Virus record (IMG/VR): IMGVR_UViG_3300015195_000001
Span: 1-55,536 of that record
From: a virus
Length of the DNA stretch: 55,536 nucleotides
Direction: 5' to 3' (one strand)
Of this stretch, positions 2,746 through 55,536 are shown in pieces (position 1 is the first letter of the stretch; each line of letters begins with the position of its first letter). The translations under genes were made by a program, and so were the position numbers. The notes beneath the pieces were generated by a model. That model did no database searches, was not told where the DNA came from, and was given only the letters and a program-made list of their open reading frames with translations.

Positions 2746-2951
2746 TCCCTACCTCCTTTCGCAGCCCCAACCGCCGCTACTTCGATCTGCGATTCGACCG
2801 CGTCCGCCCAGGCCACCAGAGCACGCGCCAGCCGTAGCGTCGGCGTCGGTCGGGCCCCCTGGAGCACCCAACATTCGCCTCGACGAGCCGCGGCGACCAG
2901 GTCGGCCGGCGGTAGATTGTCGACGAAGATATGGATCGGGCGGTTAGGCAC
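2742..2951 (-). CDS. Hypothetical protein
   Basis: 69-aa ORF that overlaps the stop of the Cro-like gene. Confidence 0.5.
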   Translation of the reverse strand: MPNRPIHIFVDNLPPADLVAAARRGECWVLQGARPTPTLRLARALVAWADAVESQIEVAAVGAAKGGRE

Positions 2952-3201
2952 TCGTTGCTACCTGCTTTCCAGTCGTCACCGTAGATGTGCTGTTAGGCAC
3001 ATCGGAGAGCAAAAAAGACACTGCGAGCGCGTGTAAGTCAGGAAACGTCCGCATAGCAGCTAGAGCCACGGTTCGACGGACCGGCCGGAGTCCGGTCCTC
3101 GCGTGAATCCACGTGGGGCGGGACAGCTTTAGAAGGCTCGCAAACTCGGTATCTGACAACCCTAACTCCCTCTGCTTTTCGATCAATTGCTCTCGGAGCA
3201 T
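2944..3201 (-). CDS. Cro-like HTH transcriptional regulator
   Basis: HTH segment LGLSDTEFASLLKLSRPTWIHARTG. It is the first gene of the minus-strand early operon and is divergent from the CI-like repressor. Confidence 0.7.
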   Translation of the reverse strand: MLREQLIEKQRELGLSDTEFASLLKLSRPTWIHARTGLRPVRRTVALAAMRTFPDLHALAVSFLLSDVPNSTSTVTTGKQVATSA

Positions 3202-3321: not shown

Positions 3322-4101
3322 ATGGAAAACAAGAGCGAAACGCTGGGGCAACTCTCGCGGCGACTGCGAAAGAAGAACGGGCTGACCCAAGGGCAGGTCG
3401 AAGAGTACGCCAAGATTGACCGCACCTGGTTATCGAAACTAGAGGCGGACAAATGGATAAAGCCAGACCATGACCGTTTGACTGTCCTGGCGCGTCTGTA
3501 TCGCGTGCCGCCGGAGACGCTTCTTGCCAGGGCTGGCTACCGTGTCACGCCGCTTCCCCTACCACCCGAGGCGACGCCCATCGAGCAAGTCCGGAGCTTA
3601 CTGGCGGCATTGGAGCGTGAGCCGACTGTCCGAGAGTTACGAAGCGGTGATATCGTTCAATTTCCGCTCGACGGTAAAATCCCGGCCGGCTATCCGAACG
3701 TCATCGAGGACGACCACGAACCCCTGATCGGTCTAACCCTGACTCCACAGCAACGCGACCGGCTCCGCCATGTCGCACGGCATCCTCGCGCGCTCATCGT
3801 CCAGGGTGATTCAATGGCGCCGAAGATTAAAGACGCGATGGTCGTTATCTACGACCCCGATCGGACTCACACGTCGGGCGATGTCGTCGTGGCGCTCGTC
3901 GACGGTGAGTCAACCCTCAAGCGCCTGATCATGACAGCGGACGCCACTATTCTTAAAGCGGATAATCCGAAGTATCCCGAGATCGTTATCCGTGACGAGT
4001 TGCGTGGCCTCATCCAGGGTGTCGTCGTCGCGCGCTATCCGATGCCGACTCTTGAGTTTATGGTGGCGACCCCGGCTCAGTCCGACAGCGATGACTTTTA
4101 G
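3322..4101 (+). CDS. CI/LexA-like repressor (XRE HTH + S24 autopeptidase)
   Basis: N-terminal HTH (LTQGQVEEYAKIDRTWLSKLE). C-terminal GDSMAP serine motif, with the downstream TLKRL lysine. Confidence 0.85.
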   Translation: MENKSETLGQLSRRLRKKNGLTQGQVEEYAKIDRTWLSKLEADKWIKPDHDRLTVLARLYRVPPETLLARAGYRVTPLPLPPEATPIEQVRSLLAALEREPTVRELRSGDIVQFPLDGKIPAGYPNVIEDDHEPLIGLTLTPQQRDRLRHVARHPRALIVQGDSMAPKIKDAMVVIYDPDRTHTSGDVVVALVDGESTLKRLIMTADATILKADNPKYPEIVIRDELRGLIQGVVVARYPMPTLEFMVATPAQSDSDDF

Positions 4102-5716
4102 GGTCGTTATCCTCGCCGCCGTCAGTTCCGCCGCTCAGCTTCACTCCGCCGACGGCGACGAAAAGGAGTCGATCCCCTACCAGATCCGTAAAGCGCGTGA
4201 AGTCATCGCGGCTCGCAGTTGGACCGAGGTCGCCGAGCCGCTGGTTATCCCGGGCCAGTCTCGGTCAATCAATTGGCTCCATGAGGCGCTAGAATCAATC
4301 CCTGCCTATCGCCAACTCCGCGAACTCGTTGACGCGGGGCAGGTCGATCTGGTCGTCGTCCGTAATTACGACCGTCTCGCCCGCACGTCGACGCTCCAAA
4401 CCCAGGTATCGGCGTACCTTAAAGAGCGGGGCGCCCAAATCTACGCGCTCGAAATGTCGGTCGAGCCACAGGACCCCGCGACCTGGCGCCCGCGTTCGGA
4501 TAGTACCCGCGTATGGGTCGAGGCGATTGCTGGGGCCCAATCAGAATCCTACGTAAATGCTCTATCGAATTTCCATCGTTTTGGCATGGAGGGGCGAACC
4601 CGCCGTGGCCAGCACGCCGAGGGCATCGCGCCGTATGGCTATCAGGACGTTCTCGCGGCGGATGGGTACGGGAAGATCCCGAAGAAGCGGGTACCAGACC
4701 CCGAGCGCTTCCCGGTCGCTCAAAGAATCTTCCGGATGATAGCCGGGGGGAAAACATCGGTTTACATTGCTCGTTGGCTTAACGGAGACGTTGACAACCC
4801 GGGGAATGTGCGTCCGCCGATCCCAACCCTCAAAGGTTCGATCTGGACGCCGCCGACGATTGTCCAGATGATCCGCAACCCGGTCTATGGCGGGAAGGTC
4901 GCGCGCTATCGCTTCAGTCGGACGCGCGACGGAAAGCAGCGAAAGAACGCGCGAGGTACTCCACCGATCCTGGTCGACGGTCTCCACGAGGCCGCGGTGA
5001 GTTGGGACGAGTGGCAGCGGGCCAACGCGATCCTGACCGAGCGCGCTCAGTTCGTCCCTCGCCTGCGCCGGCGCGATTATCTGTGGTCCGGTCTCGCCGT
5101 CTGCGGTCTGTGTCTCGACCGTGGAGAGGTCCACTCGATGCGTCGTTGCTACGACCACCAGGTGAGCCAGAGCGGCCACGTCCGCGAGTACAACTATCTC
5201 ATCTGCTCGCGCTACTCCACGAGTAACGGTAAGGTATGCGAGCGCAATATGATTACCGTTGCTGACTTCACGGCAAACGTCGTCGCTTGGCTCCAGGCCG
5301 CGCTCGACGACCCAAGGATGCTTGCCAGCACCGCGCTCGACGAAAGTTCGGATCCAAGAACAGCGATACTTGCCGACGTGGACCGAGCTCGCGCGTCTCT
5401 CGCCGCTTTGGCCGGCGAAGAACGGCGATGGGATGAGGCTTACCGCCAGGGGGCCATTTCACTCGATCGGTTCGGACGGGGCGTGTCGGAGCTTGGAGAG
5501 CGGCGGCAACGAGCCGAGCTCGACCTATCGACGCTGACATCTGTGCTCGCTGGCTCGACGTCCGCCGAGATACAGCGTGTTCGCCGGGTTGAGGCATTGG
5601 GTAACCTCCGCACGATGGAATTGGATGGCGCGTCGCCCGAGGTGGTTGCCCTGATCCACCAGGTGCTCGCCCAGGTCCAGATTCGGGGGCGAGAGTTGAA
5701 CTTCGTGGCGCGGTAG
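4091..5716 (+). CDS. int: Large serine recombinase (integrase)
   Basis: ATG at 4091 overlaps the repressor stop. Resolvase-type N-terminus (VILAAVSSAAQ, YDRLAR), a recombinase domain, a Cys-rich zinc ribbon (CGLC...C) and a coiled-coil tail. Confidence 0.85.
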   Translation: MTFRVVILAAVSSAAQLHSADGDEKESIPYQIRKAREVIAARSWTEVAEPLVIPGQSRSINWLHEALESIPAYRQLRELVDAGQVDLVVVRNYDRLARTSTLQTQVSAYLKERGAQIYALEMSVEPQDPATWRPRSDSTRVWVEAIAGAQSESYVNALSNFHRFGMEGRTRRGQHAEGIAPYGYQDVLAADGYGKIPKKRVPDPERFPVAQRIFRMIAGGKTSVYIARWLNGDVDNPGNVRPPIPTLKGSIWTPPTIVQMIRNPVYGGKVARYRFSRTRDGKQRKNARGTPPILVDGLHEAAVSWDEWQRANAILTERAQFVPRLRRRDYLWSGLAVCGLCLDRGEVHSMRRCYDHQVSQSGHVREYNYLICSRYSTSNGKVCERNMITVADFTANVVAWLQAALDDPRMLASTALDESSDPRTAILADVDRARASLAALAGEERRWDEAYRQGAISLDRFGRGVSELGERRQRAELDLSTLTSVLAGSTSAEIQRVRRVEALGNLRTMELDGASPEVVALIHQVLAQVQIRGRELNFVAR

Positions 5717-5850
5717 GGTTTCGCTGGCAATAAGAGAGGTAGCTTTCTAGGTGTCTATCTAATTGCATGTGGGAATAGGTTGAATAAAGCCGCCACGCGC
5801 AGTGAGACGGGCGTACGGCAGCGTTCGGGGGTTGAGGTTAGTGGTACAAC
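5717..5850. other. Candidate attP region (non-coding, AT-richer, next to int)
   Basis: No ORF. Lower GC than its flanks. Short dyads are present (GGTTG-N12-CAACC at about 5830-5851). Position relative to the serine integrase is the main argument. Confidence 0.25.
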
Positions 5851-6036
5851 CTAGGCCGGGGTGTCTAGCTCTGGCACTCGGTACTTCTTGCCGATTTCGA
5901 CACTCTCGTGCGGGATGCTGTAGCGATTAGCCATGCCCTGGCGTACGACCTCTGACATCGGTATACCGCGCTGTTTCGCTTCCGCAGTAATCGCGTCGGC
6001 CAGTCGTTCGGTAAAGTGAATCCAAATCCGCTTCAT
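5851..6036 (-). CDS. Ribbon-helix-helix (CopG/Arc-like) DNA-binding protein, orphan
   Basis: N-terminal beta-strand KRIWIHF followed by two helices (LADAITAEAKQRGIPMSEVVRQG). Strong GAGGAGGA RBS. Confidence 0.65.
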   Translation of the reverse strand: MKRIWIHFTERLADAITAEAKQRGIPMSEVVRQGMANRYSIPHESVEIGKKYRVPELDTPA

Positions 6037-6039
6037 TGC

Positions 6040-6062
6040 ATCCTCCTCGCCCGATTATATCA
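6040..6062 (-). promoter_or_regulatory. Extended -10 promoter for the RHH gene
   Basis: The minus strand reads TGATATAAT (TATAAT = complement of 6054-6059), with TTTACT about 15 nt upstream. Confidence 0.5.
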
Positions 6063-6083
6063 CATAGTGACCTAAGTAAACGA

Positions 6084-6137
6084 GTTTCGGATTCGTCGGT
6101 CGAAACACTTTACATCCTACTTACCTAGGTATAGAAT
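6084..6137 (+). promoter_or_regulatory. Near-consensus sigma70-type promoter of the accessory cassette, with operator-like palindromes
   Basis: TTTACA (6109-6114), a 17-nt spacer, TAGAAT (6132-6137). A perfect 10-bp palindrome TACCTAGGTA (6122-6131) lies inside the spacer. An inverted repeat GTTTCG-N11-CGAAAC (6084-6106) lies just upstream. Confidence 0.55.
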
Positions 6138-6196
6138 GGCTTTACAAGCTACCAAGTCAGACGGGACGTAGGACCCGCTGATACGGAGATCAACCA

Positions 6197-6382
6197 GTGC
6201 GCTACAACATCATCGTTTCAGACAACGACGGCAATCGCTGCGTCGGCCATCGCGGCAATCTAGAAGATGCGACTGAACTAGCCCACCTGTGGCTCACGAA
6301 ATATCAAGTCGTCTACGTGAAGCGCGAAGACTCGGTCAACCCGCTTCGCACACTCGTTCGTGAGGGGGGTTGGGACCGCTAA
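6197..6382 (+). CDS. Hypothetical small protein (61 aa), first gene of the cassette
   Basis: GTG start with a GGAGA RBS. TAATG coupling to the next gene. Confidence 0.5.
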   Translation: MRYNIIVSDNDGNRCVGHRGNLEDATELAHLWLTKYQVVYVKREDSVNPLRTLVREGGWDR

Positions 6383-7389
6383 TGCCAGACATCCAGACCA
6401 ACCACGTCGTCACGGTTAAACCGTCACTCGCCACGCGCATGCTCGATGTCCTTCTGGACGCCGACCAGCCGACCATGATCTGGGGCGCGCCCGGTATCGG
6501 CAAGAGCCAGCTCGTCAAACAGATCGCCGACCGCCGCGGGATGAAACTGATCGACGTTCGGCTATCCCTTCTCTCGGACGTCGATCTGCGCGGCATCCCG
6601 TACACCAACAACGGTCGGACCGAATGGGCACCGCCCGCGTTCCTGCCCCGCACGAACGGTGACACGATCCTATTCTTCGACGAGATGAACCGCGCGATGA
6701 CCTCGGTGATGAACGCAGCCTTTCAGATCGTCCTCGATCGCAAGCTCGGCGAGTATGAGCTACCTCCAAATGTCCGGATTGTCGCCGCTTGTAATAGAGA
6801 AACGGACGGCGGCGGGATCACCCGGATACCATCCGCTCTTCTGAATCGCTTCACCCGGATCGACATCGAGCCGGACCACAAGGACTGGCTGAAATGGTCT
6901 GCCGGCGCTCAGATCGATCCAATCGTCCAGGCGTTCATCCGATTCCGTCCGGATCTCTTGCACCAGTTCGACGCCAAGGCGGCAGCCTTCCCCACGCCTC
7001 GGGCCTGGGAGTTCGTGAGCAAGATCACGGCGCAGGACGCGCCACTCGATGTAAAAGCCGCTCTCTACGCCGGCACGGTCGGCAAGGCCGCGGGTATCGA
7101 ATACATCGCCTTCGAACGAGCCTGGCGCGATCTCCCGTCGATAGCGGCGATCCTCCTCCATCCCGATACTTCACCAATCCCGAGCGGGGTCGCGACGGTG
7201 TACGCGGTTTCCAACGCGCTCAGCCACGAAATGACCACGACTAATATCGACGCCGTCATGACCTATCTCGACAGGCTCCCCGCCGAGTACCAGGTTTTCG
7301 CCGTCAGTCTGGCGACGGGGCGCGACCCGTCCCTGGCGAATACCCGCCGCTTCATCACCTGGGCATCCGCCCACGCCGATCTATTTTAA
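6382..7389 (+). CDS. MoxR/CobS-like AAA+ ATPase (AAA_5 type)
   Basis: Walker A GAPGIGKS, Walker B ILFFDEMNRA, sensor-1 VAACN, and the ALLNRF arginine region. Confidence 0.85.
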   Translation: MPDIQTNHVVTVKPSLATRMLDVLLDADQPTMIWGAPGIGKSQLVKQIADRRGMKLIDVRLSLLSDVDLRGIPYTNNGRTEWAPPAFLPRTNGDTILFFDEMNRAMTSVMNAAFQIVLDRKLGEYELPPNVRIVAACNRETDGGGITRIPSALLNRFTRIDIEPDHKDWLKWSAGAQIDPIVQAFIRFRPDLLHQFDAKAAAFPTPRAWEFVSKITAQDAPLDVKAALYAGTVGKAAGIEYIAFERAWRDLPSIAAILLHPDTSPIPSGVATVYAVSNALSHEMTTTNIDAVMTYLDRLPAEYQVFAVSLATGRDPSLANTRRFITWASAHADLF

Positions 7390-7407
7390 GGACGAAAGGA
7401 CACGACA

Positions 7408-8298
7408 ATGACAGCAACGATGACAGCCCCCGCCGGTATCTCCACGCGCGCAATGCTCGCCGACCTGACGATCTCCTCTTGGTCGGGACGGAAGTACGAC
7501 CGGAAGGTTTCCGATGATGTCGCGACCCAGCACAACGCGACGAGTGACGCGGGCCGCTATAACAAGCGGCTCATCGCGCGCAAGGCGCAGGAGGACCTCG
7601 AACGGATCGCGCGCACGGCCTTCCGCTACCACTATTTCGTGACACTCCCCTGGCTCGATAGCGGCGTTCGGGTCTTCCCCAGTGCCCTGTATTTCGACTA
7701 CGTCACGAAGATGAACGCCTCCGAGCGCGCGTTCAACGAAGCCGCCGATCGGTTCGCGGCGGCCTACCCGCAGATGATCACCGACGCGCAGCGCGACCTG
7801 AACGGTCTGTTCAACGCGAGCGACTATCCCGCCCCGAGCGCGATTCGAAGCAAGTTTGCCTTCCGGATCGCGATGCTTCCGCTCCCCGACGCGACCGACT
7901 TTCGGGTGGACCTCGGCGACGAACAGGTCAAGAAGCTTCAAGAGCAGTTCGTCCAGACCCGCGATGCCCTCTTCAATCGCGCTATCGGCGAGGTCGTCGG
8001 GCGGATTCAGGAGGTCGTCGGGCGGATGGCCGAACGACTACGTGCCTACAAGGTGACGGACGACAAGACCGAGGGCGTCTTCCGAGATACGCTCGTGACG
8101 AACATCCGCGATCTCGTCGCCGTTCTACCCGCGCTGAATGTCACAGAAGATGACCGGCTCGACGATCTGATCGACCGCGTCCGAACCAGCCTCTGCGCCC
8201 ACGACGCGGATGTCCTGCGAGAGAACACCACCGTGCGCATCGAAACCGCCGACGCGGCCGACGAGATTCTGGCGCACGTCAACGCGTTCTTCGCATGA
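7408..8298 (+). CDS. Hypothetical protein, possibly DUF3150-like
   Basis: 296 aa, lying between the AAA+ and vWA genes. The family assignment is from my memory of this gene neighbourhood and protein size only. Confidence 0.6.
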   Translation: MTATMTAPAGISTRAMLADLTISSWSGRKYDRKVSDDVATQHNATSDAGRYNKRLIARKAQEDLERIARTAFRYHYFVTLPWLDSGVRVFPSALYFDYVTKMNASERAFNEAADRFAAAYPQMITDAQRDLNGLFNASDYPAPSAIRSKFAFRIAMLPLPDATDFRVDLGDEQVKKLQEQFVQTRDALFNRAIGEVVGRIQEVVGRMAERLRAYKVTDDKTEGVFRDTLVTNIRDLVAVLPALNVTEDDRLDDLIDRVRTSLCAHDADVLRENTTVRIETADAADEILAHVNAFFA

Positions 8299-9626
8299 TC
8301 ACAACCATTCAAAACCCCGCCGAGGCTGGTCGCATCATGCGTGCTCGGATTCGTCTCTTGATCGATCATCCGTGGTTCGGCCAACTCGCCCTGAACCTCA
8401 AGGTCACGGAAACGACCAAGTGCCCCGCGATGGCAACGGACGGGACGCACCTGTTCTATAACCCGACCTGGACCGCCGCGCAGACCGACGACGTGCTCAG
8501 CGGTACGGTTGCTCACGAGGCGATGCACTGCGGTCTGCGGCACATGTTTCGGTGCCAGGGCCGCGAGATGAAGCTTTGGAATCAAGCCACGGATTACGCG
8601 ATCAATCCTCTCCTCGACGCCAGCAAGATCCAACTCCCCGAAGGCGTGCTGCGTAGCGCAGCCTACAGCGGCCTCGCCGCCGAGACGATCTACGCGAAGC
8701 TAGTTCACGAGCAGCAAGAGAAACAGCGCCGAGAAGAGCAGGAGCAGCAGGACAACGCGCAGAACGACGCCGCTCAGGATGAGTCAGACGAGAGCGAAGA
8801 TTCGGACGAGCAGCCCGAACCAGAAGATTCAGGCGACCAGTCCGACGACGAGAGCGACCGAGATCAGAGCGACGAGCCGGGCGAAGAAGAAGGCGAAGGC
8901 CCAGGCCAGGGCGACTTCGATAACGGCGATCTTCTCCCCGCGCCGAAGGCCAGCGACGTCAAGGATGGAGCCGACGGCGAGACGGACGCGCCGCTTACTG
9001 ATATGGATTGGGAGATCATCGCCGATCAGGCCACGATGGTTGCTACCAAGCGTGGATTAATGCCCGCTGATGCCGACCGGGCTTTCCGCGAGACGCTCGA
9101 ACCGAAGGTCAACTGGCGCGAAGTCCTCCGCCGCTTCGTCGATCAGACGATGCCGAGCGATTATAACTGGAGTCGCCCCAATCGCCGCTATGTCGCTCAG
9201 GGACTGTACCTACCTGCCGTCGTCAAGGAGAACGCACCGCGACTGCTCATCGCATTAGATACGTCCGGGAGCATCGACCAGAGCGTCCTCGACACATTCT
9301 CGGCAGAGCTCAGCGCGATCATGATGGAGGTTCGGCCTTCCGCGATCGACGTTGTCTCCTGTGACGCGCGGATCCAGAACGTCGAGACATTCACCGCCGA
9401 CGACGGCGAGATCATCCCGCACCCCAAGGGTGGCGGCGGTACAGCCTTTCAGCCTGTCTTCGATTGGGTCGAAGAACAGGACGAGCAGCCCGCCGCGATC
9501 ATCTATCTAACCGACCTCGACGGTGACGAGCCACGCGAGCCCGCGATGCCCGTCTTATGGGTAACGCCCGAACGAGTCACGAAGGAAGGATTATTTGGAG
9601 AAACGATTCGGATCCCAGCAGCGTAG
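8295..9626 (+). CDS. Putative metallopeptidase-vWA protein (DUF2201_N + DUF2201/vWA-like)
   Basis: AHEAMHCGLRH (HExxH, 8514-8528) and a MIDAS-like LDTSGS (9258-9272). An acidic low-complexity linker separates the two domains. ATGA coupling to the upstream gene. Confidence 0.8.
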   Translation: MITTIQNPAEAGRIMRARIRLLIDHPWFGQLALNLKVTETTKCPAMATDGTHLFYNPTWTAAQTDDVLSGTVAHEAMHCGLRHMFRCQGREMKLWNQATDYAINPLLDASKIQLPEGVLRSAAYSGLAAETIYAKLVHEQQEKQRREEQEQQDNAQNDAAQDESDESEDSDEQPEPEDSGDQSDDESDRDQSDEPGEEEGEGPGQGDFDNGDLLPAPKASDVKDGADGETDAPLTDMDWEIIADQATMVATKRGLMPADADRAFRETLEPKVNWREVLRRFVDQTMPSDYNWSRPNRRYVAQGLYLPAVVKENAPRLLIALDTSGSIDQSVLDTFSAELSAIMMEVRPSAIDVVSCDARIQNVETFTADDGEIIPHPKGGGGTAFQPVFDWVEEQDEQPAAIIYLTDLDGDEPREPAMPVLWVTPERVTKEGLFGETIRIPAA

Positions 9627-9685: not shown

Positions 9686-9994
9686 ATGGGTGCCGCAGTA
9701 TTTTATCAGGAAGGCCGAGGTAAGAGCGCGAAGGAAGCATTTCAGGCTGCGCGTGATGACGCTGCATGGGAACGCGGCCACGGAGGTTATACCGGATCGC
9801 TCGCCGAGAAATCCGAGTTTGTCATGATCGCCGTACCGTCCGGGCAAGATCCCGAAATATTTGCCAGCGACCTCATCCATGATGGTGACGGACGTATTGT
9901 CGACAAGTGGGGGCCAGCCGGCTGTATTGATCTCGGCGAATCTGATCCAGTTGGATTGAGACGCTATCTCTTCTTCGGGTGGGCGTCCTGTTGA
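9686..9994 (+). CDS. Hypothetical protein (102 aa)
   Basis: AGGAGGGAAAGG RBS. Motifs GHGGYTGSLAEK and WGPAGC. Family not recognised. Confidence 0.6.
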   Translation: MGAAVFYQEGRGKSAKEAFQAARDDAAWERGHGGYTGSLAEKSEFVMIAVPSGQDPEIFASDLIHDGDGRIVDKWGPAGCIDLGESDPVGLRRYLFFGWASC

Positions 9995-9996
9995 CA

Positions 9997-10203
9997 ATGA
10001 TTCTCTCCGCCCTCCGGGCCGTGACCAGGTTCGGAATCTGGTCGGGCCTCGCGCCGACGGGCCTGCAAGTCCTCCGTGACGGGGAGTCGACGGACACGAC
10101 ATCGGAGCTAGATCGAATCATCAAGGATTGGGTAATAAGAGCATTTCGCCATCGCCAGGTTCGCCAGTCCGTCTACCGCGCGACGCGGGGGAAGCGGCGG
10201 TGA
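9997..10203 (+). CDS. Hypothetical basic small protein (68 aa)
   Basis: High third-position GC across the ORF, and it fills an otherwise 225-nt gap. Start is ATG 9997 or GTG 9979. Confidence 0.4.
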   Translation: MILSALRAVTRFGIWSGLAPTGLQVLRDGESTDTTSELDRIIKDWVIRAFRHRQVRQSVYRATRGKRR

Positions 10204-10220
10204 GTGAGCAGGAGGATAAT

Positions 10221-10553
10221 ATGACATCAACTATTGACGTTCTCGATCAGTCGGGCCATAGCGCACTCGCATGGAATCCCGACGACCCCGCCGATGTCGC
10301 CCACGCGGCGGAGGCGGTCGAAAATCTACGCAAGGCTGGTTACACGTTCTATCGCCAGGTGGAGGGCGCCGACGACTTTGGCACACCCGGTCGTCTCATC
10401 TTCGAAAAGGTTGACGACCCGATCACCCGGGATGTTCCGCTCGCGCTACCTTCACCGACCGAAACGCCCTCAACCGCCGAGACTGAACCGAAACACCGGA
10501 AGCCGTATGCGCCCCGGAAGACTATCGCACGACCTCCCCAACGAGGCGGGTAG
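10221..10553 (+). CDS. Hypothetical protein (110 aa)
   Basis: ATG at 10221 with a GGAGG RBS at 10211-10215. The ORF-track start at 10128 was rejected. Confidence 0.6.
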   Translation: MTSTIDVLDQSGHSALAWNPDDPADVAHAAEAVENLRKAGYTFYRQVEGADDFGTPGRLIFEKVDDPITRDVPLALPSPTETPSTAETEPKHRKPYAPRKTIARPPQRGG

Positions 10554-11105
10554 ATGACCCTCGACGAACGGAACGACTTAGCGTTGCGGCTAGGCTCCGG
10601 CGTCCTCGCGCCCGACTTCGTAGATTGGGATGCCCTACCCAAAGACGAGGCCGAGGAAATCCTTCGGGGCGCGACGGCGGTTCTGAACTGGCTCCGCTGC
10701 CGTCCGCTGCGAGTCGCCCAGCGTCGGGCGATGAACCTGCTTCGGTCCCTGCTGGATGACGGCCAGCGCACCCAGGTTCAGCGGTCGAGGACGTTCCACG
10801 TCGTCGGATCGACTGGCGGACTTTATCGGCTCATGCCCCACTGCGGTCACGCGGATCGAGTCGTTCGCCACGGTAAGCGGTGGTACGCGGACGTGAGTTA
10901 TTGCTTACACGAGGATGACCGCAAGATTCCTCGAGCGGACACGACTATCGGCCATCTACTCTTACTGACAACCGATGAACCCGCGTTTCTCGCCCAGGCC
11001 AACGCTTGCGAGTGCGATCAACTATGGAACGGGGATTATCTGCGCCACGTTCGAGGGCGGCGGAAGCGCTGGTTAGCAGAACTTGCGGCTGAGGGGATAG
11101 CGTAA
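10554..11105 (+). CDS. Hypothetical protein (183 aa)
   Basis: The start abuts the preceding stop. Cys/His-rich segments are present (HCGH, CLHED, CEC). Confidence 0.6.
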   Translation: MTLDERNDLALRLGSGVLAPDFVDWDALPKDEAEEILRGATAVLNWLRCRPLRVAQRRAMNLLRSLLDDGQRTQVQRSRTFHVVGSTGGLYRLMPHCGHADRVVRHGKRWYADVSYCLHEDDRKIPRADTTIGHLLLLTTDEPAFLAQANACECDQLWNGDYLRHVRGRRKRWLAELAAEGIA

Positions 11106-11143
11106 GCGAGGCGATTAGACGGTAATTCGTGCAAACAAAAAGA

Positions 11144-11169
11144 GGCCCGGAGATTTGATTCTCCGGGCC
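11144..11169. terminator. Bidirectional intrinsic terminator closing the accessory cassette
   Basis: Perfect 10-bp stem GGCCCGGAGA/TCTCCGGGCC with a 6-nt loop. An A-run lies upstream and a T-rich tail downstream. Confidence 0.75.
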
Positions 11170-11540
11170 TTCCGTTGTCTATGGGCTCTCTCTTTACCCC
11201 GGTGCCTGTCAATGCCGGGAGACCGAGCCCTAGTACGTCCCTAACGGTTTGGTACGCTACCCCTTGCGTTATGTCGATTGCAAGGTCGACCGGCGGCTTA
11301 CGGATACCGCGCCCGCCAACGATCTCTCGTCGCTGGTCCAGTTCCGCCCCTATGACCTACCGACTGTTGCCGGCGACATGCCGAGAACGGAACAACACCC
11401 TTAAAGGGTTCAAGGTTAGTGGCGCGCGATGGGTTTACACCATCCCGACCGCTCCCGGTCGCGCTTCCCTTGCGGGCGCTGAGGGGACTGAGGTGGCCGA
11501 TGCTTGACGACGGCCCCGCGCCAAAGTCCGATTATAGCAA

Positions 11541-11945: not shown

Positions 11946-13346
11946 CTATCCGTTGATCCCCAGCGCGATCTTGATACTCGCCACGCGCTCGTGGATGGCT
12001 CGCTCGGATTCGGCCGGGTTGGCCTTGATCGTGTCTGCCTTGGCCATGCCCCAGATCAGCCCGAGGTCGTCAAGAACCTTAGCTTTCTGCTCGTTCGTCA
12101 ATTCGTCACCTCCCGCGTAGCGCTTCACCCGTGCCAGGAAATCTGCTCGGTCAAACGGTCCGCCGACATCCTGGTGGCCATCGGTGTTCGAGGGCATATT
12201 GCGATGCTCTTCGATACCGTGCGTCGTCGACCAGACAATCGGAATCGCGTATTGCTTGCACCACCGCGCTACAATCTGCGCTGCGGCGTCGAGAATCTCC
12301 GGCAGGATCGGATTGTCGACGTGGGCTTTGCACATCTCGATCCCAAGGTGGGTAGCGTTCGACGCCCGACAGTGCCAAGCCTCATTCGCCAGATCGACCG
12401 GATAGTCGACCAGGCCAACCGGCCCAACGACCGCGTGAGCCGACACCTGTGAAGCGGGAGAGTAAAACCAGTTCAGCGTGGCGTGGTACTCCGTCAACGG
12501 ATTCGTTGAGTTCCCGAGCGTGGCGTGGATTACGACGCCCGTTGTCGTGGCTCTTGCGCCGCCGTGGTTGGGCGACGAGTACGTTGGTGGCGTCACCGGC
12601 GGTCCTCCTGTGTGCAATGACGCGGACAATTCGTCAAGGTCATAGTTATTCCAGTTCGGCTCCGCCCCGCTGATAAACGGTGTCGCCAGCTCGTGCGGGA
12701 GCAGTTGCGCACCGTAGGCGTTTAACTCGGCAGCGTAGGTATCGGCACTGAGGCCGTCAGCTTTCCATCCGCCCCGACCGATATAGGTGCCGTTGTCTCC
12801 GTCACGGATCGTGTCCCGTCCGCATTCGGTAATGACCACGAGACGATGACCGTCAAGAATTGCGTTGTAGTACGTGCGCCAACGGAGGCCGTTGTAAATA
12901 GTCGGCCCTCGATCCGCCCAATAGGCGTGGAGAGCGATGGCGTCGAGTCCGCACCAGTTGGCGGCGCGGAAGGCGTTCCAGTCGACTTTGTCATAGTCCC
13001 CCGTGGCCCAGCTCGGGCCGCACACTTTCAAGCCCCGCGCGTGAAGTATAGGCACGATGGCCTTCAAGAATGCTATGTAATCGTGGAGTGAGTTCTTCGG
13101 CAGCTCATTCAGCGTTTCTACGTACAGGTTCGGATGCCGATAGCCGGCGAGTGTCGAGACGATGCCTAATGCGATACTAGCCGGGTTAGCCAGGTCCTGA
13201 TTCCCGAACACCCAACGATAGATGCGGATGGCGTCATCGGGCGCTGCTCGGAGCACGTCGGTCTGATTCACGCCCTTCACCACGTGGCTGCGCGCGGCGA
13301 AGGCAAGCGCCTCCGGCGTGGAGCGCTGCGCCTGGCAGCCAATCAT
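11946..13346 (-). CDS. Endolysin: clan-GH-A-like glycosidase + N-acetylmuramoyl-L-alanine amidase (Amidase_2/PGRP) + C-terminal domain
   Basis: N-terminal TIM-barrel-like LNE...ITECG pattern. Central VVIHATLG, AHAVV, EAWHC, HLGIE and HRN..H.DVG amidase motifs. Confidence 0.8.
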   Translation of the reverse strand: MIGCQAQRSTPEALAFAARSHVVKGVNQTDVLRAAPDDAIRIYRWVFGNQDLANPASIALGIVSTLAGYRHPNLYVETLNELPKNSLHDYIAFLKAIVPILHARGLKVCGPSWATGDYDKVDWNAFRAANWCGLDAIALHAYWADRGPTIYNGLRWRTYYNAILDGHRLVVITECGRDTIRDGDNGTYIGRGGWKADGLSADTYAAELNAYGAQLLPHELATPFISGAEPNWNNYDLDELSASLHTGGPPVTPPTYSSPNHGGARATTTGVVIHATLGNSTNPLTEYHATLNWFYSPASQVSAHAVVGPVGLVDYPVDLANEAWHCRASNATHLGIEMCKAHVDNPILPEILDAAAQIVARWCKQYAIPIVWSTTHGIEEHRNMPSNTDGHQDVGGPFDRADFLARVKRYAGGDELTNEQKAKVLDDLGLIWGMAKADTIKANPAESERAIHERVASIKIALGING

Positions 13347-45070: not shown

Positions 45071-45274
45071 TCAGGAAACGACTAGCCGGTCCTTAAACCG
45101 TTCTCGCAAACTCTCACTCTTGATCGGCTTGACCTCAACCAGCTTCATCCCGTACTCGTTCGGTTCGAGCGTCGAGAGGTCGATCCCGGGCTTGAGCTTG
45201 AGCGGAGTATCGAACTTACCCCAGGCGTTCTTGACGATATGCTGCGGGCGCTTAAAGCGACGACCGGTTTTCAC
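45071..45274 (-). CDS. Hypothetical basic protein (67 aa)
   Basis: A GTG at 45274 overlaps the upstream TGA (GTGA). The TTG at 45313 given in the ORF track is less likely. Confidence 0.4.
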   Translation of the reverse strand: MKTGRRFKRPQHIVKNAWGKFDTPLKLKPGIDLSTLEPNEYGMKLVEVKPIKSESLRERFKDRLVVS

Positions 45275-45828
45275 GACACCGGGCCAGAGACGTTCGCCAG
45301 GACTTGGAGGCAAAGGTCGGTATCCTCGTTGTAGCGACCGCGCCAGCGATAGGGCAGATCGTTCCGAATAAGGAAGTTGGAATAGACATGGTTATTGAGA
45401 TAGAGCGGTGGCACTTTCTTCCGGTTCGGTGCGAACATATACGCTTGCATGCCGGCGATCGCGAGATTCTCGTAGCGGTCCGCGAAACCCTCGATTGCCT
45501 CAAGAGCAGAGCCGGAGTTACAAGGCATGCGGATCGACTGAACCCGCCGGAACACCTGGCGAATATTATCGTCGAAGATCCAATGCTTCGCGCAGCCGTT
45601 AGAGATAGCGTCATCCCAGACCCAATTACGGGCCGGGATCGAGCCGAGGCCGAGGTTACTAAACGGCAGGATCGCTAGTCGCCCCGCTCCGTAGCCGGCG
45701 GCGTAAGCGTCCGCTTCCTGTGGCTCCACGACAAGCCGAAAGTCGAGGCCGTCTTTGACCATAAACTTCGCGGTCATGCAGCGGTCGGCGCGACCCTTAC
45801 TAATGATGTAGACCGGGTATCGCGGCAT
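45271..45828 (-). CDS. Putative GT-A-fold glycosyltransferase-like protein (TAGT/GREB1-like?)
   Basis: PVYIISKGR N-terminal strand, a WIFDDN DxD-like motif, and NEDTDLCL near the C-terminus. The assignment is by motif recall only. Confidence 0.3.
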   Translation of the reverse strand: MPRYPVYIISKGRADRCMTAKFMVKDGLDFRLVVEPQEADAYAAGYGAGRLAILPFSNLGLGSIPARNWVWDDAISNGCAKHWIFDDNIRQVFRRVQSIRMPCNSGSALEAIEGFADRYENLAIAGMQAYMFAPNRKKVPPLYLNNHVYSNFLIRNDLPYRWRGRYNEDTDLCLQVLANVSGPVS

Positions 45829-45833
45829 GCGTC

Positions 45834-46511
45834 TTATCGTCCCTTGCTATCGACGTAGCGGAGCGACGACGCATCATCCTTCTGTCGGTTCGGCCAGAAT
45901 CCAGACCAGGTCGCCGTCCCGTTCTGTTTCAGAATAGCGATCCCGACCTTGTCGACGAAAGTCTTGCGATTCTGCTCGTTCTCAAACGAGATCACGAGCT
46001 TGAACGGATCGGTTCCGTCCTCGTAGCCCGGCATCCCGGCCCAGGCAGCAGCCGCGTCGAAATCTTGGATCTCACTTTCCGGCCGTGTCACGAAGACGAG
46101 GTTCGCTAGCATCATCTCGTCGTAGCCTGTCCCGAGTAGCCCGGCGAGATCGTCGTCCTTGATTTCTTTGAGTAACTCCGAGAGCAGGCGGTCGTCACGT
46201 TCGGCCAGGTGGCTAATCTCATTATCACCGGCGAGAAGCTTGAGTGCGCGGGGTTCGTCAGGGTCGAGCGGCATCCGAATTACCGGGACACTAACGTAAC
46301 CGAGCTGCTTCGCCGCCTGGACGAGACCGTGGCCCGCGAGGATCGTCCCGTCTTTCGCGATGACGACCGGGCGATAGAGGCCGTGCTCTTGGATGGATTC
46401 GACGATATGGAAAAGTTGATCCTCGGGGTGACTCTGGTAGTTTCGGGGATGTGGCCGGAGCTCAGTGATCAGAACAGTCTCGACTTTCAACTGCGCTTCA
46501 GCGACAGCCAC
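45834..46511 (-). CDS. ParB-like nuclease-domain protein
   Basis: ITELRPHPRNYQSHPEDQL...PVVIAKDGTILAGHGLVQAAKQLG. The C-terminal half has no methyltransferase motifs. Confidence 0.75.
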   Translation of the reverse strand: MAVAEAQLKVETVLITELRPHPRNYQSHPEDQLFHIVESIQEHGLYRPVVIAKDGTILAGHGLVQAAKQLGYVSVPVIRMPLDPDEPRALKLLAGDNEISHLAERDDRLLSELLKEIKDDDLAGLLGTGYDEMMLANLVFVTRPESEIQDFDAAAAWAGMPGYEDGTDPFKLVISFENEQNRKTFVDKVGIAILKQNGTATWSGFWPNRQKDDASSLRYVDSKGR

Positions 46512-53264: not shown

Positions 53265-53501
53265 TCATCTAGACTCCATCTGGATCGAACTCACTTCAAT
53301 CGGGATGTCTGGAAAGGTGCCTGTCCATTTCTTGATCAGGTCCGCCGCCTCCTCCCTAGTCAGATCCTGAGGGTATTTATGCGTCGCCCAACGCACGAGT
53401 TCATCAGTCCTCTCAGCGCCCACCCATGCGTGTTCATAGCCCAATCTGTGAATCTCGCCAATTTGGGCCGGGCTTGCGAACGAATCCCAGCTAATATTCA
53501 T
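53265..53501 (-). CDS. Hypothetical protein
   Basis: 78-aa ORF with a 4-nt overlap with the DnaB stop. Confidence 0.5.
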   Translation of the reverse strand: MNISWDSFASPAQIGEIHRLGYEHAWVGAERTDELVRWATHKYPQDLTREEAADLIKKWTGTFPDIPIEVSSIQMESR

Positions 53502-54844
53502 CTCTCACTCCTCGCTAAATTCCTAAACGTCGCCAGCGTCGGCACCCACAGCAGCGGGACGGTCACGCCCGAAGCGCCCTGGCGTTGCTTGGCGATGATG
53601 AGCTCGGCCACGTTGCCGGGATACGCTGTCGTCTTGCGCGCCTGTTTCCACGTGGCCTCGGTCGGGTAGTGGTAGCTGGCGCGGTAGAGCAGCAGAACGA
53701 TGTCAGCCTCCTGCTCGATCTCGCCCGAGTTGCGGAGGTCGATCAGTCCGGGTCGCGTGTCCTGGTTTTCGCGTTCGGTCGTGCGGGAGAGCTGACTGCC
53801 GGCAATCAGCGGCACGTCGAGCTCCATCGCGATCGACTTGAGTGCGCGTGCCGTTTTGCTCACGCGCTCCAAGTCGGTCCTGCCAGGGTCAGCCATGCGC
53901 TGGATGTAGTCGACGACGATGGCGACGATCGGTTCCTCGTGGTGGACGCGCCGGGCAATCGCGCGGACTTTCTCACTCGTCATCGCGCCGTCGGTCACGG
54001 TCAGAATCGGCATAAACTCGCGCGTGGTGAGTGCTTGATTGATCCGGTCTTCGTCGAGGTCGTTCCAGGTATTGCCGGCAACGTCCGTTAATGGCACCTC
54101 GGACAGGACTGAAATATCTCGCGCGGCGAGGTCGATCTTGCCCATTTCGTTCGAGAAGAACAGAACCCGACCGTGGCCGGAGATCGACCGCGCCATGTCG
54201 CGCAGCATGGATGATTTGCCAACACCAGGCCGAGCGCCGATAACGCAGAACTGACCGCCCCGAAAGCCGCCAGACAGGTGACGGTTTAGGTCGTAATAGC
54301 CGGTCGTGACTCCGATTCCCTGACCGTTGCGAATGGCATCGCGCTTACCGGCAAAGAGGTCCATCAGGCTACGGTCGTCGGAGACGCTCGCATCGTCGGA
54401 TGTCTCGACTGTCGAGTCCGCGATGAGCGATGCCGACAACTCGGCTGCGCCGCTGGCGGTGAGGGCGGGATCACTGGCTGCCGTCGCGACGGTGGCGGAA
54501 GCGGCCAGCAGGCGGCGGCGGTTCGACGCTCGGCGCACGCGCTTCGCGTACTCGGTCGCGTAGATCGACGTGGGGCACTGACCGGCGATCTCGACCAGCG
54601 CGAAAGGTTTCACCTTACCGCCACGCCTCGCCAGTTCGTCGACGAGAGCGGTAAAGATCGGTAGATCGCCACGACCGGATATCTCGCGCATCGCCGTAAA
54701 CGTCTCGCGGCAGGCCGGGCTAAAAAACTCGGCCGGTGTCAGCGCGAGCGTGGCGACAATAGGCGGATCAATCAAGCAGGCCCCGATGATGTCCCGTTCA
54801 TCGCGGTCGGCTCGGATCGGCGCGGAGCTCGATATTTCGCCCAT
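53498..54844 (-). CDS. dnaB: DnaB-like replicative helicase
   Basis: N-terminal domain DERDIIGACLIDPP, Walker A GARPGVGKS, Walker B VVDYIQ, and RecA-like motifs. Confidence 0.9.
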   Translation of the reverse strand: MGEISSSAPIRADRDERDIIGACLIDPPIVATLALTPAEFFSPACRETFTAMREISGRGDLPIFTALVDELARRGGKVKPFALVEIAGQCPTSIYATEYAKRVRRASNRRRLLAASATVATAASDPALTASGAAELSASLIADSTVETSDDASVSDDRSLMDLFAGKRDAIRNGQGIGVTTGYYDLNRHLSGGFRGGQFCVIGARPGVGKSSMLRDMARSISGHGRVLFFSNEMGKIDLAARDISVLSEVPLTDVAGNTWNDLDEDRINQALTTREFMPILTVTDGAMTSEKVRAIARRVHHEEPIVAIVVDYIQRMADPGRTDLERVSKTARALKSIAMELDVPLIAGSQLSRTTERENQDTRPGLIDLRNSGEIEQEADIVLLLYRASYHYPTEATWKQARKTTAYPGNVAELIIAKQRQGASGVTVPLLWVPTLATFRNLARSER

Positions 54845-55536
54845 GGGTCCTCTCCTAACAGCTGTTGAGCCTCGAAATCGAATGGCGGTTCATGGTTCGA
54901 CGGTAAAGGAGCCTCGCGATAGTCCGACAGGTGCGAGGCGATCGCCGCCGGGTTGATCGGAAGATTCGGGCAACGCTTTCGGTAGCGCTCGACGATTGAC
55001 GGTATTTCCTCAAGAGTGACGACCGGCTCAGCTGAGCGAATTTCCGTCACGCCTTTACCCCACTTCGCCCACTCGCCTTTCGTCGACGGACGTTGACCGA
55101 TACTTTCGACGAACGATTCCAGGTATCGATCGTTGTCTGTCGGCGCGCGTTTTGTTTTCGCGACGCGCGCCGACTCTTCTTTGTCTTCTTTGTTTGTTTG
55201 TATTGTTTGTTTGTTTGTTTGTAGTACGTCATGTGACGCTACGGTGACAGTCACGTGACTGTCACTCGATTCACGGTGCTTAGCACGTGATGCACGCACG
55301 ACTTCAGCGTGACGAGCACGGCGCTCCTTATACTTTCCGTTGTAGTCTGGCCAATCGTGAATCACTGTCGTGCCCTCCGAGCGATCAACGAAACGCGCGA
55401 AAATCAGGGATTCGTACCATACGCCTGAGTCGTCATTCCAAGAACAAGCGTCCGCGATTTCATCCGCTCCATACTTGGAGATGTCGCCATCGGTCGCGTA
55501 GTCCATTGCCCACCACCACAGAAGGTGCAGGTGGCC
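54772..55536 (-). CDS. Replisome organizer / replication initiator, C-terminal 254 codons (N-terminus lies at 220->128 across the junction)
   Basis: The frame is open to the window end. Same gene as feature 1..220. It contains the ori-like repeat block. Confidence 0.7.
   Translation of the reverse strand, partial: GHLHLLWWWAMDYATDGDISKYGADEIADACSWNDDSGVWYESLIFARFVDRSEGTTVIHDWPDYNGKYKERRARHAEVVRASRAKHRESSDSHVTVTVASHDVLQTNKQTIQTNKEDKEESARVAKTKRAPTDNDRYLESFVESIGQRPSTKGEWAKWGKGVTEIRSAEPVVTLEEIPSIVERYRKRCPNLPINPAAIASHLSDYREAPLPSNHEPPFDFEAQQLLGEDPWAKYRAPRRSEPTAMNGTSSGPA
55142..55330. promoter_or_regulatory. Candidate origin of replication embedded in the organizer gene
   Basis: GC hairpin GGCGCGCG-N14-CGCGCGCC (55142-55171). 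A (TTTG)n / T-rich tract at about 55176-55224. A perfect 22-bp palindrome GTGACAGTCACGTGACTGTCAC (55244-55265). At least 6 further GTGAC/GTCAC/CACGTGA motifs up to about 55330. Confidence 0.5.
55410..55536. repeat. Second copy of the 127-bp terminal repeat
   Basis: Identical to 1..127. Confidence 0.97.

Follow-up and report, generated by a model that had tools for sequence, protein, structure and literature searches.

What does a phage gain from a three-gene cassette that sets a MoxR-type ATPase, a protein of the DUF3150 family, and a metallopeptidase-like protein with a von Willebrand factor A (vWA) domain side by side? The question is raised by IMG/VR virus record IMGVR_UViG_3300015195_000001, analyzed here over its entire length of 55,536 nucleotides (nt; hereafter, the window), in which the three genes (hereafter, the trio) follow one another on the plus strand. 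An earlier reading of this DNA, made without database searches (the sequence-only reading), had put the cassette forward as a candidate prophage conflict system, in a place usual for genes of prophage defense or superinfection exclusion, and had stated that no function is established for the phage-borne three-gene version, which holds. We find that the trio is an obligate, portable module of mobile elements, and that two of its genes have homologues at the core of strictly lytic phages. Tentatively, we favor a role in which the three products may serve the element after its entry into the cell, with evasion of host defense as the preferred purpose. The three genes are (lengths in amino acids, aa):

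6382–7389, plus strand: MoxR/AAA_5-type AAA+ ATPase of the N4 gp24 family (phrog_1297)
7408–8298, plus strand: 296-aa divergent DUF3150-family protein
8295–9626, plus strand: 443-aa zincin (DUF2201_N) and vWA (DUF2201) protein with a metal-ion-dependent adhesion site (MIDAS), of the N4 gp25 family (phrog_1314)

The composition and coupling of the trio are as the sequence-only reading had described them. Its three open reading frames (ORFs) are present at 6382–9626 on the plus strand, and their junctions show direct coupling: a 61-aa leader ORF overlaps the ATPase gene (TAATG), an 18-nt gap with an AAGGA Shine-Dalgarno sequence lies between the ATPase and DUF3150-like genes, and the latter overlaps the vWA gene (ATGA). 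The Walker A (GAPGIGKS), Walker B (FFDEMN), and ALLNRF motifs of the ATPase, together with the HExxH (AHEAMHCGLRH) and MIDAS (LDTSGS) motifs of the third protein, all occur in the translations, and the proposed domain make-up of an AAA_5 ATPase and an HExxH zincin joined to a vWA/MIDAS domain is borne out by Pfam.

The ATPase matches Pfam AAA_5 at 4e-10 and, over residues 9–334, phrog_1297 at 1e-93, and a Pfam scan finds no CbbQ_C domain in it. Its nearest solved relatives by sequence in the Protein Data Bank (PDB) are the AAA domains of midasin (2e-19), followed by NorQ. The Walker A motif, D104, N142, R160, and R211 are 88–98% conserved in 150 homologues. Inteins typically persist in genes that an element cannot lose, and the closest relative of the locus (L007, a Logan SRR28624377 contig, 5415–7253) carries an intein of approximately 277 aa within the Walker A motif of its ATPase (GAPG/C.../CGKS). 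Between this relative and the window the ATPase exteins are 92–95% identical and the other two trio proteins 68–69%, a gap which would fit either an ATPase under far stronger constraint or gene conversion in the surroundings of the intein.

The third protein matches DUF2201_N at 1.5e-43 and DUF2201 at 1e-24 in Pfam, as well as phrog_1314 at 5.5e-93. Its zincin residues (H74, E75, H78, H83) and MIDAS residues (D322, S324, S326, T383, D407) are 88–100% conserved in 144 homologues. An AlphaFold2 (AF2) model, with a predicted local distance difference test (pLDDT) score of 84, has a zincin head made of helices and a compact vWA domain, joined by an acidic linker that is modeled at low confidence (pLDDT <70) over approximately residues 161–230. 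The vWA domain matches the folds of ArnB-vWA2, CLCA1, NorD, and the MDN1 MIDAS; the zincin head has no fold relatives in the PDB, and the whole protein has no sequence matches there. The linker itself (approximately residues 135–235; 8697–9000) comprises about 100 residues and is disordered, extremely acidic, and rich in D, E, Q, and S, with an isoelectric point near 4, and the homologues range from approximately 370 to 560 aa. phrog_1314 carries the label "HNH endonuclease," a name that many GenBank phage records repeat for gp25 homologues; since DUF2201_N and DUF2201 are all that Pfam detects, this name seems to be an error of annotation.

The middle protein is a divergent member of its family. 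It scores 21.3 bits (E 1.9e-4) against Pfam DUF3150 (PF11348), short of the gathering cut-off of 24.9, and many of its close homologues carry a precomputed PF11348 match. Its AF2 model (pLDDT 92.6) has a mixed beta-sheet and two helices of approximately 43 residues each, and a Foldseek search of the model against BFVD returns a phage "DUF3150 domain-containing protein" with a template modeling score of 0.86 and an E value of 1.5e-21. The PDB holds no fold match (best E 0.27) and no sequence match to it. The protein lacks a catalytic motif and keeps a constant length of about 290 aa over its homologues, of which more than 150 are listed; among clusters built at 50% identity, 10,322 representatives match its profile, and its best cellular relatives are only approximately 43% identical. 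A search of the literature under the Pfam names DUF3150 and DUF2201 found nothing useful, and essentially nothing on DUF3150.

How firmly do the three genes belong together? Loci were sampled from IMG/VR (80) and from species-representative genomes (80), with several plasmid and metagenome loci in addition, and their ORFs were searched with profiles of the three trio proteins. A DUF3150-like gene is present at 168 loci, and all three genes lie on one strand in 152/152 of those with enough flanking DNA. The order is ATPase-DUF3150-vWA in 109 of these complete loci, DUF3150-ATPase-vWA in 35, and ATPase-vWA-DUF3150 in 8; the 15 partial sets are, every one, at a contig end. The three proteins co-evolve, with pairwise identities that correlate (r = 0.92–0.93 over 136 loci) at a median divergence of 34–36% identity. 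Their catalytic motifs are 86–100% conserved, and both the zincin–vWA architecture and the DUF3150 protein of about 290 aa are constant over 144–152 homologues. Only the trio is common to this phage and the other loci, the commonest other neighbor family reaching at most 13/73 dereplicated loci.

The two outer genes have homologues in virulent phages. The zincin-vWA protein matches 595 phage records, mostly lytic, among which N4-like podoviruses and jumbo phages dominate; its matches among jumbo phages include Muenster, Ettore, XbC2, and G. The gene pair is present in Bacillus phage G, whose gp576 is matched by a locus profile at 2e-116. In Escherichia phage G7C, the profiles of the locus match gp24 at full length (1e-96, residues 4–348) and gp25 (7e-95), the latter having the same two domains, DUF2201_N and DUF2201. 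The literature lists gp24 and gp25 as signature genes of the strictly lytic Schitoviridae; those of N4 are transcribed as middle genes, with their function listed as "unknown," and the gp24/gp25 homologues of roseophages have structural genes nearby. CRISPRi-ART and phage transposon-sequencing (Tn-seq) papers yielded nothing on gp24/gp25 essentiality. The sequence-only reading had itself named core status of the homologues in lytic phages as the finding that would tell against it, and this is largely the status that the G7C matches reveal. A profile search of the G7C locus, representing the N4-like phages, detected no DUF3150-like gene, and such a gene occurs in only 3/50,697 phage records, seemingly from one cyanophage. 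In that cyanophage, MinM2 (L176), the trio is interrupted by small ORFs and lies in an early operon with a primase, a PD-(D/E)XK nuclease, and ERF; the complete MinM2 record has no annotated integrase or repressor.

Plasmids are carriers as well. A DUF3150-like gene is carried by 60 plasmids, 29 of which are typed as conjugative, and three plasmid contexts were inspected. Cupriavidus pRK1-1 has a compact trio after PRTRC genes; a Rhodovastum plasmid has the trio among toprim, ParB, and zeta-toxin genes; and a Simplicispira MOBH/AcaB-type plasmid (L173) has it in a unidirectional block with exo, RecT, ssb, toprim, DUF4942, and a C5 methylase. A two-gene form, MoxR ATPase and DUF2201 vWA protein without DUF3150, is found on Rhodococcus pREL1 (L171) and Synechocystis pSYSA (L172), where it adjoins toxin-antitoxin and replication genes.

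The wider company of the trio was surveyed by Pfam counts on random samples of 148 neighboring proteins. At viral loci these comprise DnaB (4), DUF4942 (4), polymerase (pol) III beta (2), gpA-type terminase (2), and tyrosine integrase (2), with one each of RecT, YqaJ, Dam-like, ThyA, and resolvase; at genome loci they comprise pol III beta (6–7), tyrosine integrase (6), VirB11 (3), TrbL/VirB6 (3), portal/TerL, and Rad52 (2). Integrases are rare among the neighbors. On phages and conjugative elements, therefore, the trio usually keeps company with genes for replication, recombination, and modification rather than with lysogeny modules. Recurrent near the trio are single-strand annealing proteins (SSAPs) with exonucleases (RecT/ERF/Rad52 with PD-(D/E)XK or YqaJ), the pol III beta clamp, DUF4942, and DNA methylases.

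The only experimental lead comes from the IncC plasmids. The sequence-only reading had mentioned DUF3150 proteins in the company of cobS-like and cobT-like genes on plasmids, and this is seen in IncC pAR060302, where one block (L175, 3680–11673) encodes an AAA_5 and CbbQ_C ATPase, a 302-aa protein, ssb, bet, exo, a DUF3150 protein, and a CobT and VWA protein. The DUF3150 protein is canonical (305 bits), and the CobT-VWA protein has an N-terminal AHEAAH motif. In pVCR94, type I restriction is evaded by means of vcrx089-090, which act in the recipient, and the ssb-bet-exo genes of the IncC host-defense-evasion (hde) operon repair CRISPR-Cas breaks; reverse-transcription PCR primed from vcrx094 detected an operon transcript extending through vcrx094, and thus co-transcription (Roy et al. 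2020, PMC7498323). The pAR060302 counterpart of vcrx094 is the canonical DUF3150 gene, which the CobT-vWA gene adjoins. vcrx089 now serves as an anti-restriction marker in phage annotation. The possibility that Vcrx090 is a hidden DUF3150 paralogue was rejected, at an hhalign probability of 0.6%.

The hde region of IncC and SXT-R391 elements resembles the trio in that a DUF3150 protein is combined with an AAA_5 ATPase and with a vWA protein whose N-terminal part has an AHEAxH motif, on a mobile element and co-transcribed with SSAP and exonuclease genes, and the equivalent block on a MOBH plasmid carries a trio of the window type. It differs in that its ATPase and vWA proteins belong to different Pfam families and its genes are split by ssb-bet-exo; moreover, the anti-restriction activity was demonstrated for vcrx089-090 and not for the DUF3150 and vWA genes of the IncC region. 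The link between IncC and the trio is, by analogy, one of architecture and setting rather than of family.

Comparison with better-described systems places the trio more precisely. N4 gp24/gp25 share with it full-length homology of both proteins, the same PHROGs, the zincin and DUF2201 domains, adjacency, and gene order; they differ in having no detectable DUF3150-like gene, and N4-like phages are virulent whereas the window phage is temperate. A MoxR and metallopeptidase-vWA "chaperone-cochaperone pair" with a predicted role in virion assembly has been described in group 2.2 jumbo phages (Iyer et al. 2021, PMC7824862); its two-protein architecture is identical, but it is described as a pair, with neither a DUF3150 subunit nor a plasmid distribution mentioned. 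The cellular systems RavA-ViaA, NorQ-NorD, CbbQ-CbbO, CobS-CobT, BchI-BchD, and midasin/Rea1 likewise couple an AAA_5/MoxR ATPase to a MIDAS vWA partner that grips a third protein, whereas the vWA protein of the trio has a conserved zincin head, its third protein is DUF3150 instead of a metabolic enzyme, and it is found exclusively on mobile elements.

The sequence-only reading had leaned on the affinity of MoxR-vWA pairs with conflict systems, and this part of its case is not supported by the comparison. The MoxR-vWA ternary conflict systems (Kaur et al. 2020, PMC7159879) also join a MoxR ATPase and a vWA protein to a specific third protein; however, the third component of the trio, which matches only DUF3150 in Pfam, is not of the VMAP, iSTAND, or beta-propeller/FtsH type, its architecture is constant where such systems swap variable effector domains, and bpMoxR scores 17 bits against a cut-off of 27. 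PADLOC v2 and NCBIfam antiphage models returned only P-loop noise of 14–18 bits, to IetA, DolB, EruA, and IteA, the cut-offs of the EruA and IteA models being 510–1000. A paper on leading-region anti-defense makes no mention of vWA.

Where, then, does the trio stand in its own genome? The window is a temperate myovirus-like phage genome and a complete circular assembly, its first and last 127 bases being identical (1–127 and 55410–55536), which leaves 55,409 unique bases, and it makes up the whole of a JGI metagenome contig; it is thus not embedded in a host chromosome, and the prophage setting assumed by the sequence-only reading falls away. Because the genome closes into a circle, the early minus-strand operon continues from the cro-like gene over the junction into the replication genes. 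The features that frame the trio are as follows:

2944–3201, minus strand: cro-like helix-turn-helix gene, start of a single long lytic program
3322–4101, plus strand: CI/LexA-like S24 repressor
3992–5716, plus strand: large serine integrase
5851–6036, minus strand: 61-aa ribbon-helix-helix (RHH; CopG/Arc-like) protein, divergent from the trio, with a GGAGG Shine-Dalgarno sequence; Pfam RHH_1 match sub-threshold (E 0.0066)
6109–6137, plus strand: sigma-70-like promoter TTTACA-17-TAGAAT, found in a scan with 10/12 matches, upstream of the trio operon
6197–6382, plus strand: 61-aa leader ORF whose stop overlaps the ATPase start, without a family match and unique to this phage
9686–11105, plus strand: three ORFs of 102, 141, and 183 aa, in the transcription unit of the trio and outside the conserved module
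11143–11170, no strand assigned: G+C-rich hairpin separating the convergent trio and late/lysis operons, with its T-run on the minus strand
11946–13346, minus strand: putative lysin of 466 aa, without a family match, in the lytic program
53498–54844, minus strand: DnaB, in the lytic program
54772–55506, minus strand: replication initiator, in the lytic program after it wraps round the circle

The minus-strand lytic program further includes a ParB-like nuclease, TerL, portal, major capsid protein, and tail sheath genes. The protein with the ParB-like nuclease domain adjoins a match to phrog_842 (beta-glucosyl-hydroxymethylcytosine alpha-glucosyltransferase), the two occupying 45271–46511 on the minus strand directly upstream of the terminase, and this pair may be a DNA-modification or packaging accessory.

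The plus-strand unit that holds the trio runs from the 61-aa ORF through the three genes and the three small ORFs up to the hairpin at 11143–11170, which possibly also terminates it. The sequence-only reading had placed the trio on the lysogeny strand next to the integrase; the strand, shared with the repressor and integrase, and the separate unit stand, but a 134-nt spacer and the antisense RHH gene intervene between integrase and trio. The spacer, from the integrase stop to the RHH gene (5717–5850), is partly A+T-rich. It is a plausible location of the phage attachment site attP, and if attP does lie there, integration would put the trio at the end of the prophage opposite the integrase. The small ORFs that flank the trio, that is, the 61-aa ORF and the three downstream, were considered as members of the system and rejected, since none is conserved in related loci: together with the RHH gene, they have no homologue in any of 170 related loci, the first of the downstream three having a weak phrog_37401 match only. 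A nucleotide search with 5.4 kb of the region against the 50,697 phage records gave zero matches.

Control of the unit is a matter of suggestive sites. The promoter that the sequence-only reading had called strong is present, but it is not significant alone, because the scan returns 4 promoter-like sites versus 2.4 +/- 1.5 in shuffles. Its spacer holds a perfect palindrome, TACCTAGGTA, at 6122–6131, and direct repeats, CTTTACAnnCTAC, at 6108–6120 and 6140–6152 lie on either side of the −10 element. The palindrome and repeats are candidate operators for the divergently encoded RHH protein, itself a candidate local regulator of the trio unit. Taken together, the divergent RHH gene, the palindrome, and the flanking repeats suggest that the operon is gated locally instead of being under CI control.

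These observations can be assembled into a proposed mechanism. The MoxR/AAA_5 ATPase ring, of the N4 gp24 family, would supply ATP-driven remodeling; its partner of the N4 gp25 family, which carries a zinc-protease head, would use the metal-ion site in its vWA domain to grip a target; and the DUF3150-family protein, as an obligate third subunit, would most likely be an adaptor that selects, presents, or gates the target. Whereas the data show the gene content, the strict linkage of the three genes, their motif conservation, co-evolution, distribution, and neighborhoods, we infer that the proteins form a complex, that DUF3150 is its adaptor, when the genes are expressed, what the target is, and how the element benefits. 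The three proteins would act as one cytoplasmic machine serving the element, not the host, soon after DNA entry, remodeling or cleaving a protein of the host or of the element such that the incoming DNA survives, replicates, and recombines, with evasion of host defense as its most probable purpose. In the window phage, its genes form a distinct operon that would use a promoter of its own and that the divergent RHH protein probably gates. Such a machine fits every context in which the trio occurs, but a tentative preference is as far as we would take this ATP-driven remodeling and proteolysis machine and its favored use in evading host defense. A more specific version, which we consider doubtful, is that of a previously unrecognized and very widespread portable AAA+ protease of mobile elements, in which DUF3150 recruits a host immunity or DNA-repair protein to the MIDAS, the MoxR ring unfolds or extracts it, and the zincin cuts it; a restriction complex or a RecBCD-like nuclease would be examples of such targets.

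Several points weigh against this preference. The trio operon lies outside the early lytic operon, on the strand of the repressor and integrase and among unique small ORFs, a position typical of accessory genes expressed in lysogens. The universality of gp24/gp25 in the Schitoviridae fits a housekeeping function better than it fits an anti-defense gene, which is typically patchy in distribution. From the IncC side, vcrx094/095 (DUF3150 and vWA) were not flagged in Tn-seq (Roy et al. 2020, PMC7498323). Both the ATPase and the vWA protein of IncC were rejected as orthologues: the ATPase profile reaches E 9e-4 over the P-loop only, BLASTP finds no similarity between the window ATPase and the Vcrx089 homologue, and the vWA profile yields no match. 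The IncC DUF3150 protein is marginal against the DUF3150-like profile of the window (E 0.003), with a weak alignment at the level of motifs.

Among the competing explanations, the housekeeping one has the trio assist, as an accessory factor, in replicating or recombining the DNA of the element itself, without a direct role against host immunity; examples would be the loading, remodeling, or clearing of complexes of the replisome, sliding clamp, or recombinase, or the removal of DNA-bound proteins. Universal conservation of gp24/gp25 as middle genes in N4-like phages, a class that contains replication genes, argues for it, as do the most recurrent neighbors (pol III beta, DnaB, primase/toprim, and SSAP with exonuclease) and the P-loop intein, which suggests an indispensable gene. 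We nevertheless rate it as rather unlikely, with the initiator and DnaB of the window phage in a different operon on the other strand, no nucleic-acid-binding domain detected in any of the three proteins by Pfam or fold searches, and the only functional data on an analogous ATPase pointing to anti-restriction. The virion gives another possible client: the trio may be an assembly chaperone and protease, as predicted for the pair in jumbo phages of group 2.2 by analogy with Acidianus two-tailed virus (Iyer et al. 2021, PMC7824862). This published prediction is joined by the divergence of the trio from TerL and portal genes in several viral contigs and by the roseophage structural genes near gp24/gp25 homologues. 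Yet trios reside on conjugative megaplasmids with relaxase and mating-pair formation genes and no virion genes, the two-gene form resides on pREL1 and pSYSA, gp24/gp25 are middle rather than late genes, and in the window the trio and the structural operon occupy opposite strands, all of which makes assembly distinctly improbable. As for an auxiliary metabolic chelatase or metal-cofactor insertion system of the CobS/CobT kind, the AAA_5 and vWA architecture is indeed that of CobS/CobT and BchI/BchD, the trio matches phrog_249 ("porphyrin biosynthesis") weakly, and the IncC analogues carry CbbQ_C and CobT domains; with neither a CobN/BchH-type subunit nor tetrapyrrole genes among the window ORFs or the sampled neighbors, a partner built of a zincin head and DUF2201 instead of CobT, and DNA-related contexts, this is very hard to credit.

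Defense by the lysogen or superinfection exclusion, as proposed by the sequence-only reading, would have the MoxR-vWA pair as an NTP-dependent switch and the zincin as its effector. The separate unit on the repressor and integrase strand, with its promoter-like site, local RHH regulator, and phage-specific small ORFs, is what such a role might look like, and MoxR-vWA ternary systems have been predicted to act in conflict, one pathway being experimentally linked to defense against epibionts. The case is nonetheless weak, because the homologous pair is core in the strictly lytic Schitoviridae, the trio occurs on plasmids and in a cyanophage without annotated lysogeny genes, matches to the PADLOC and NCBIfam antiphage catalogues are limited to the P-loop, and the architecture is constant, with no effector swapping and no VMAP, iSTAND, or beta-propeller partner; the rarity of integrases among the neighbors also tells against it. 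Only the position of the operon in this one genome speaks for the defense of a lysogen, which we regard as quite unlikely. A conflict role in the opposite direction, as counter-defense, is plausible, and since strictly lytic phages have two of the genes in their core set, the trio more likely aids the establishment of the element than the defense of the host.

The two-gene core is already published; it has been a signature of N4-like phages since the first comparisons and is still without an assigned function. We found neither the strict three-gene form with DUF3150 described, nor its scale, nor its occurrence on phages and plasmids alike. DUF3150, a very large family, emerges as a third partner that is obligate for this core in both kinds of element, and its partnership, together with the IncC lead, makes an anonymous gene pair into a three-protein machine that can be tested. 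If the portable AAA+ protease version were true, it would constitute a new mechanistic class of counter-defense that phages have in common with conjugative plasmids, and it would also account for N4 gp24/gp25, whose role has long been a puzzle. More generally, should the trio be a device for counter-defense or establishment, it would be important for the host range of phages, including therapy with N4-like phages, and for the spread of plasmids.

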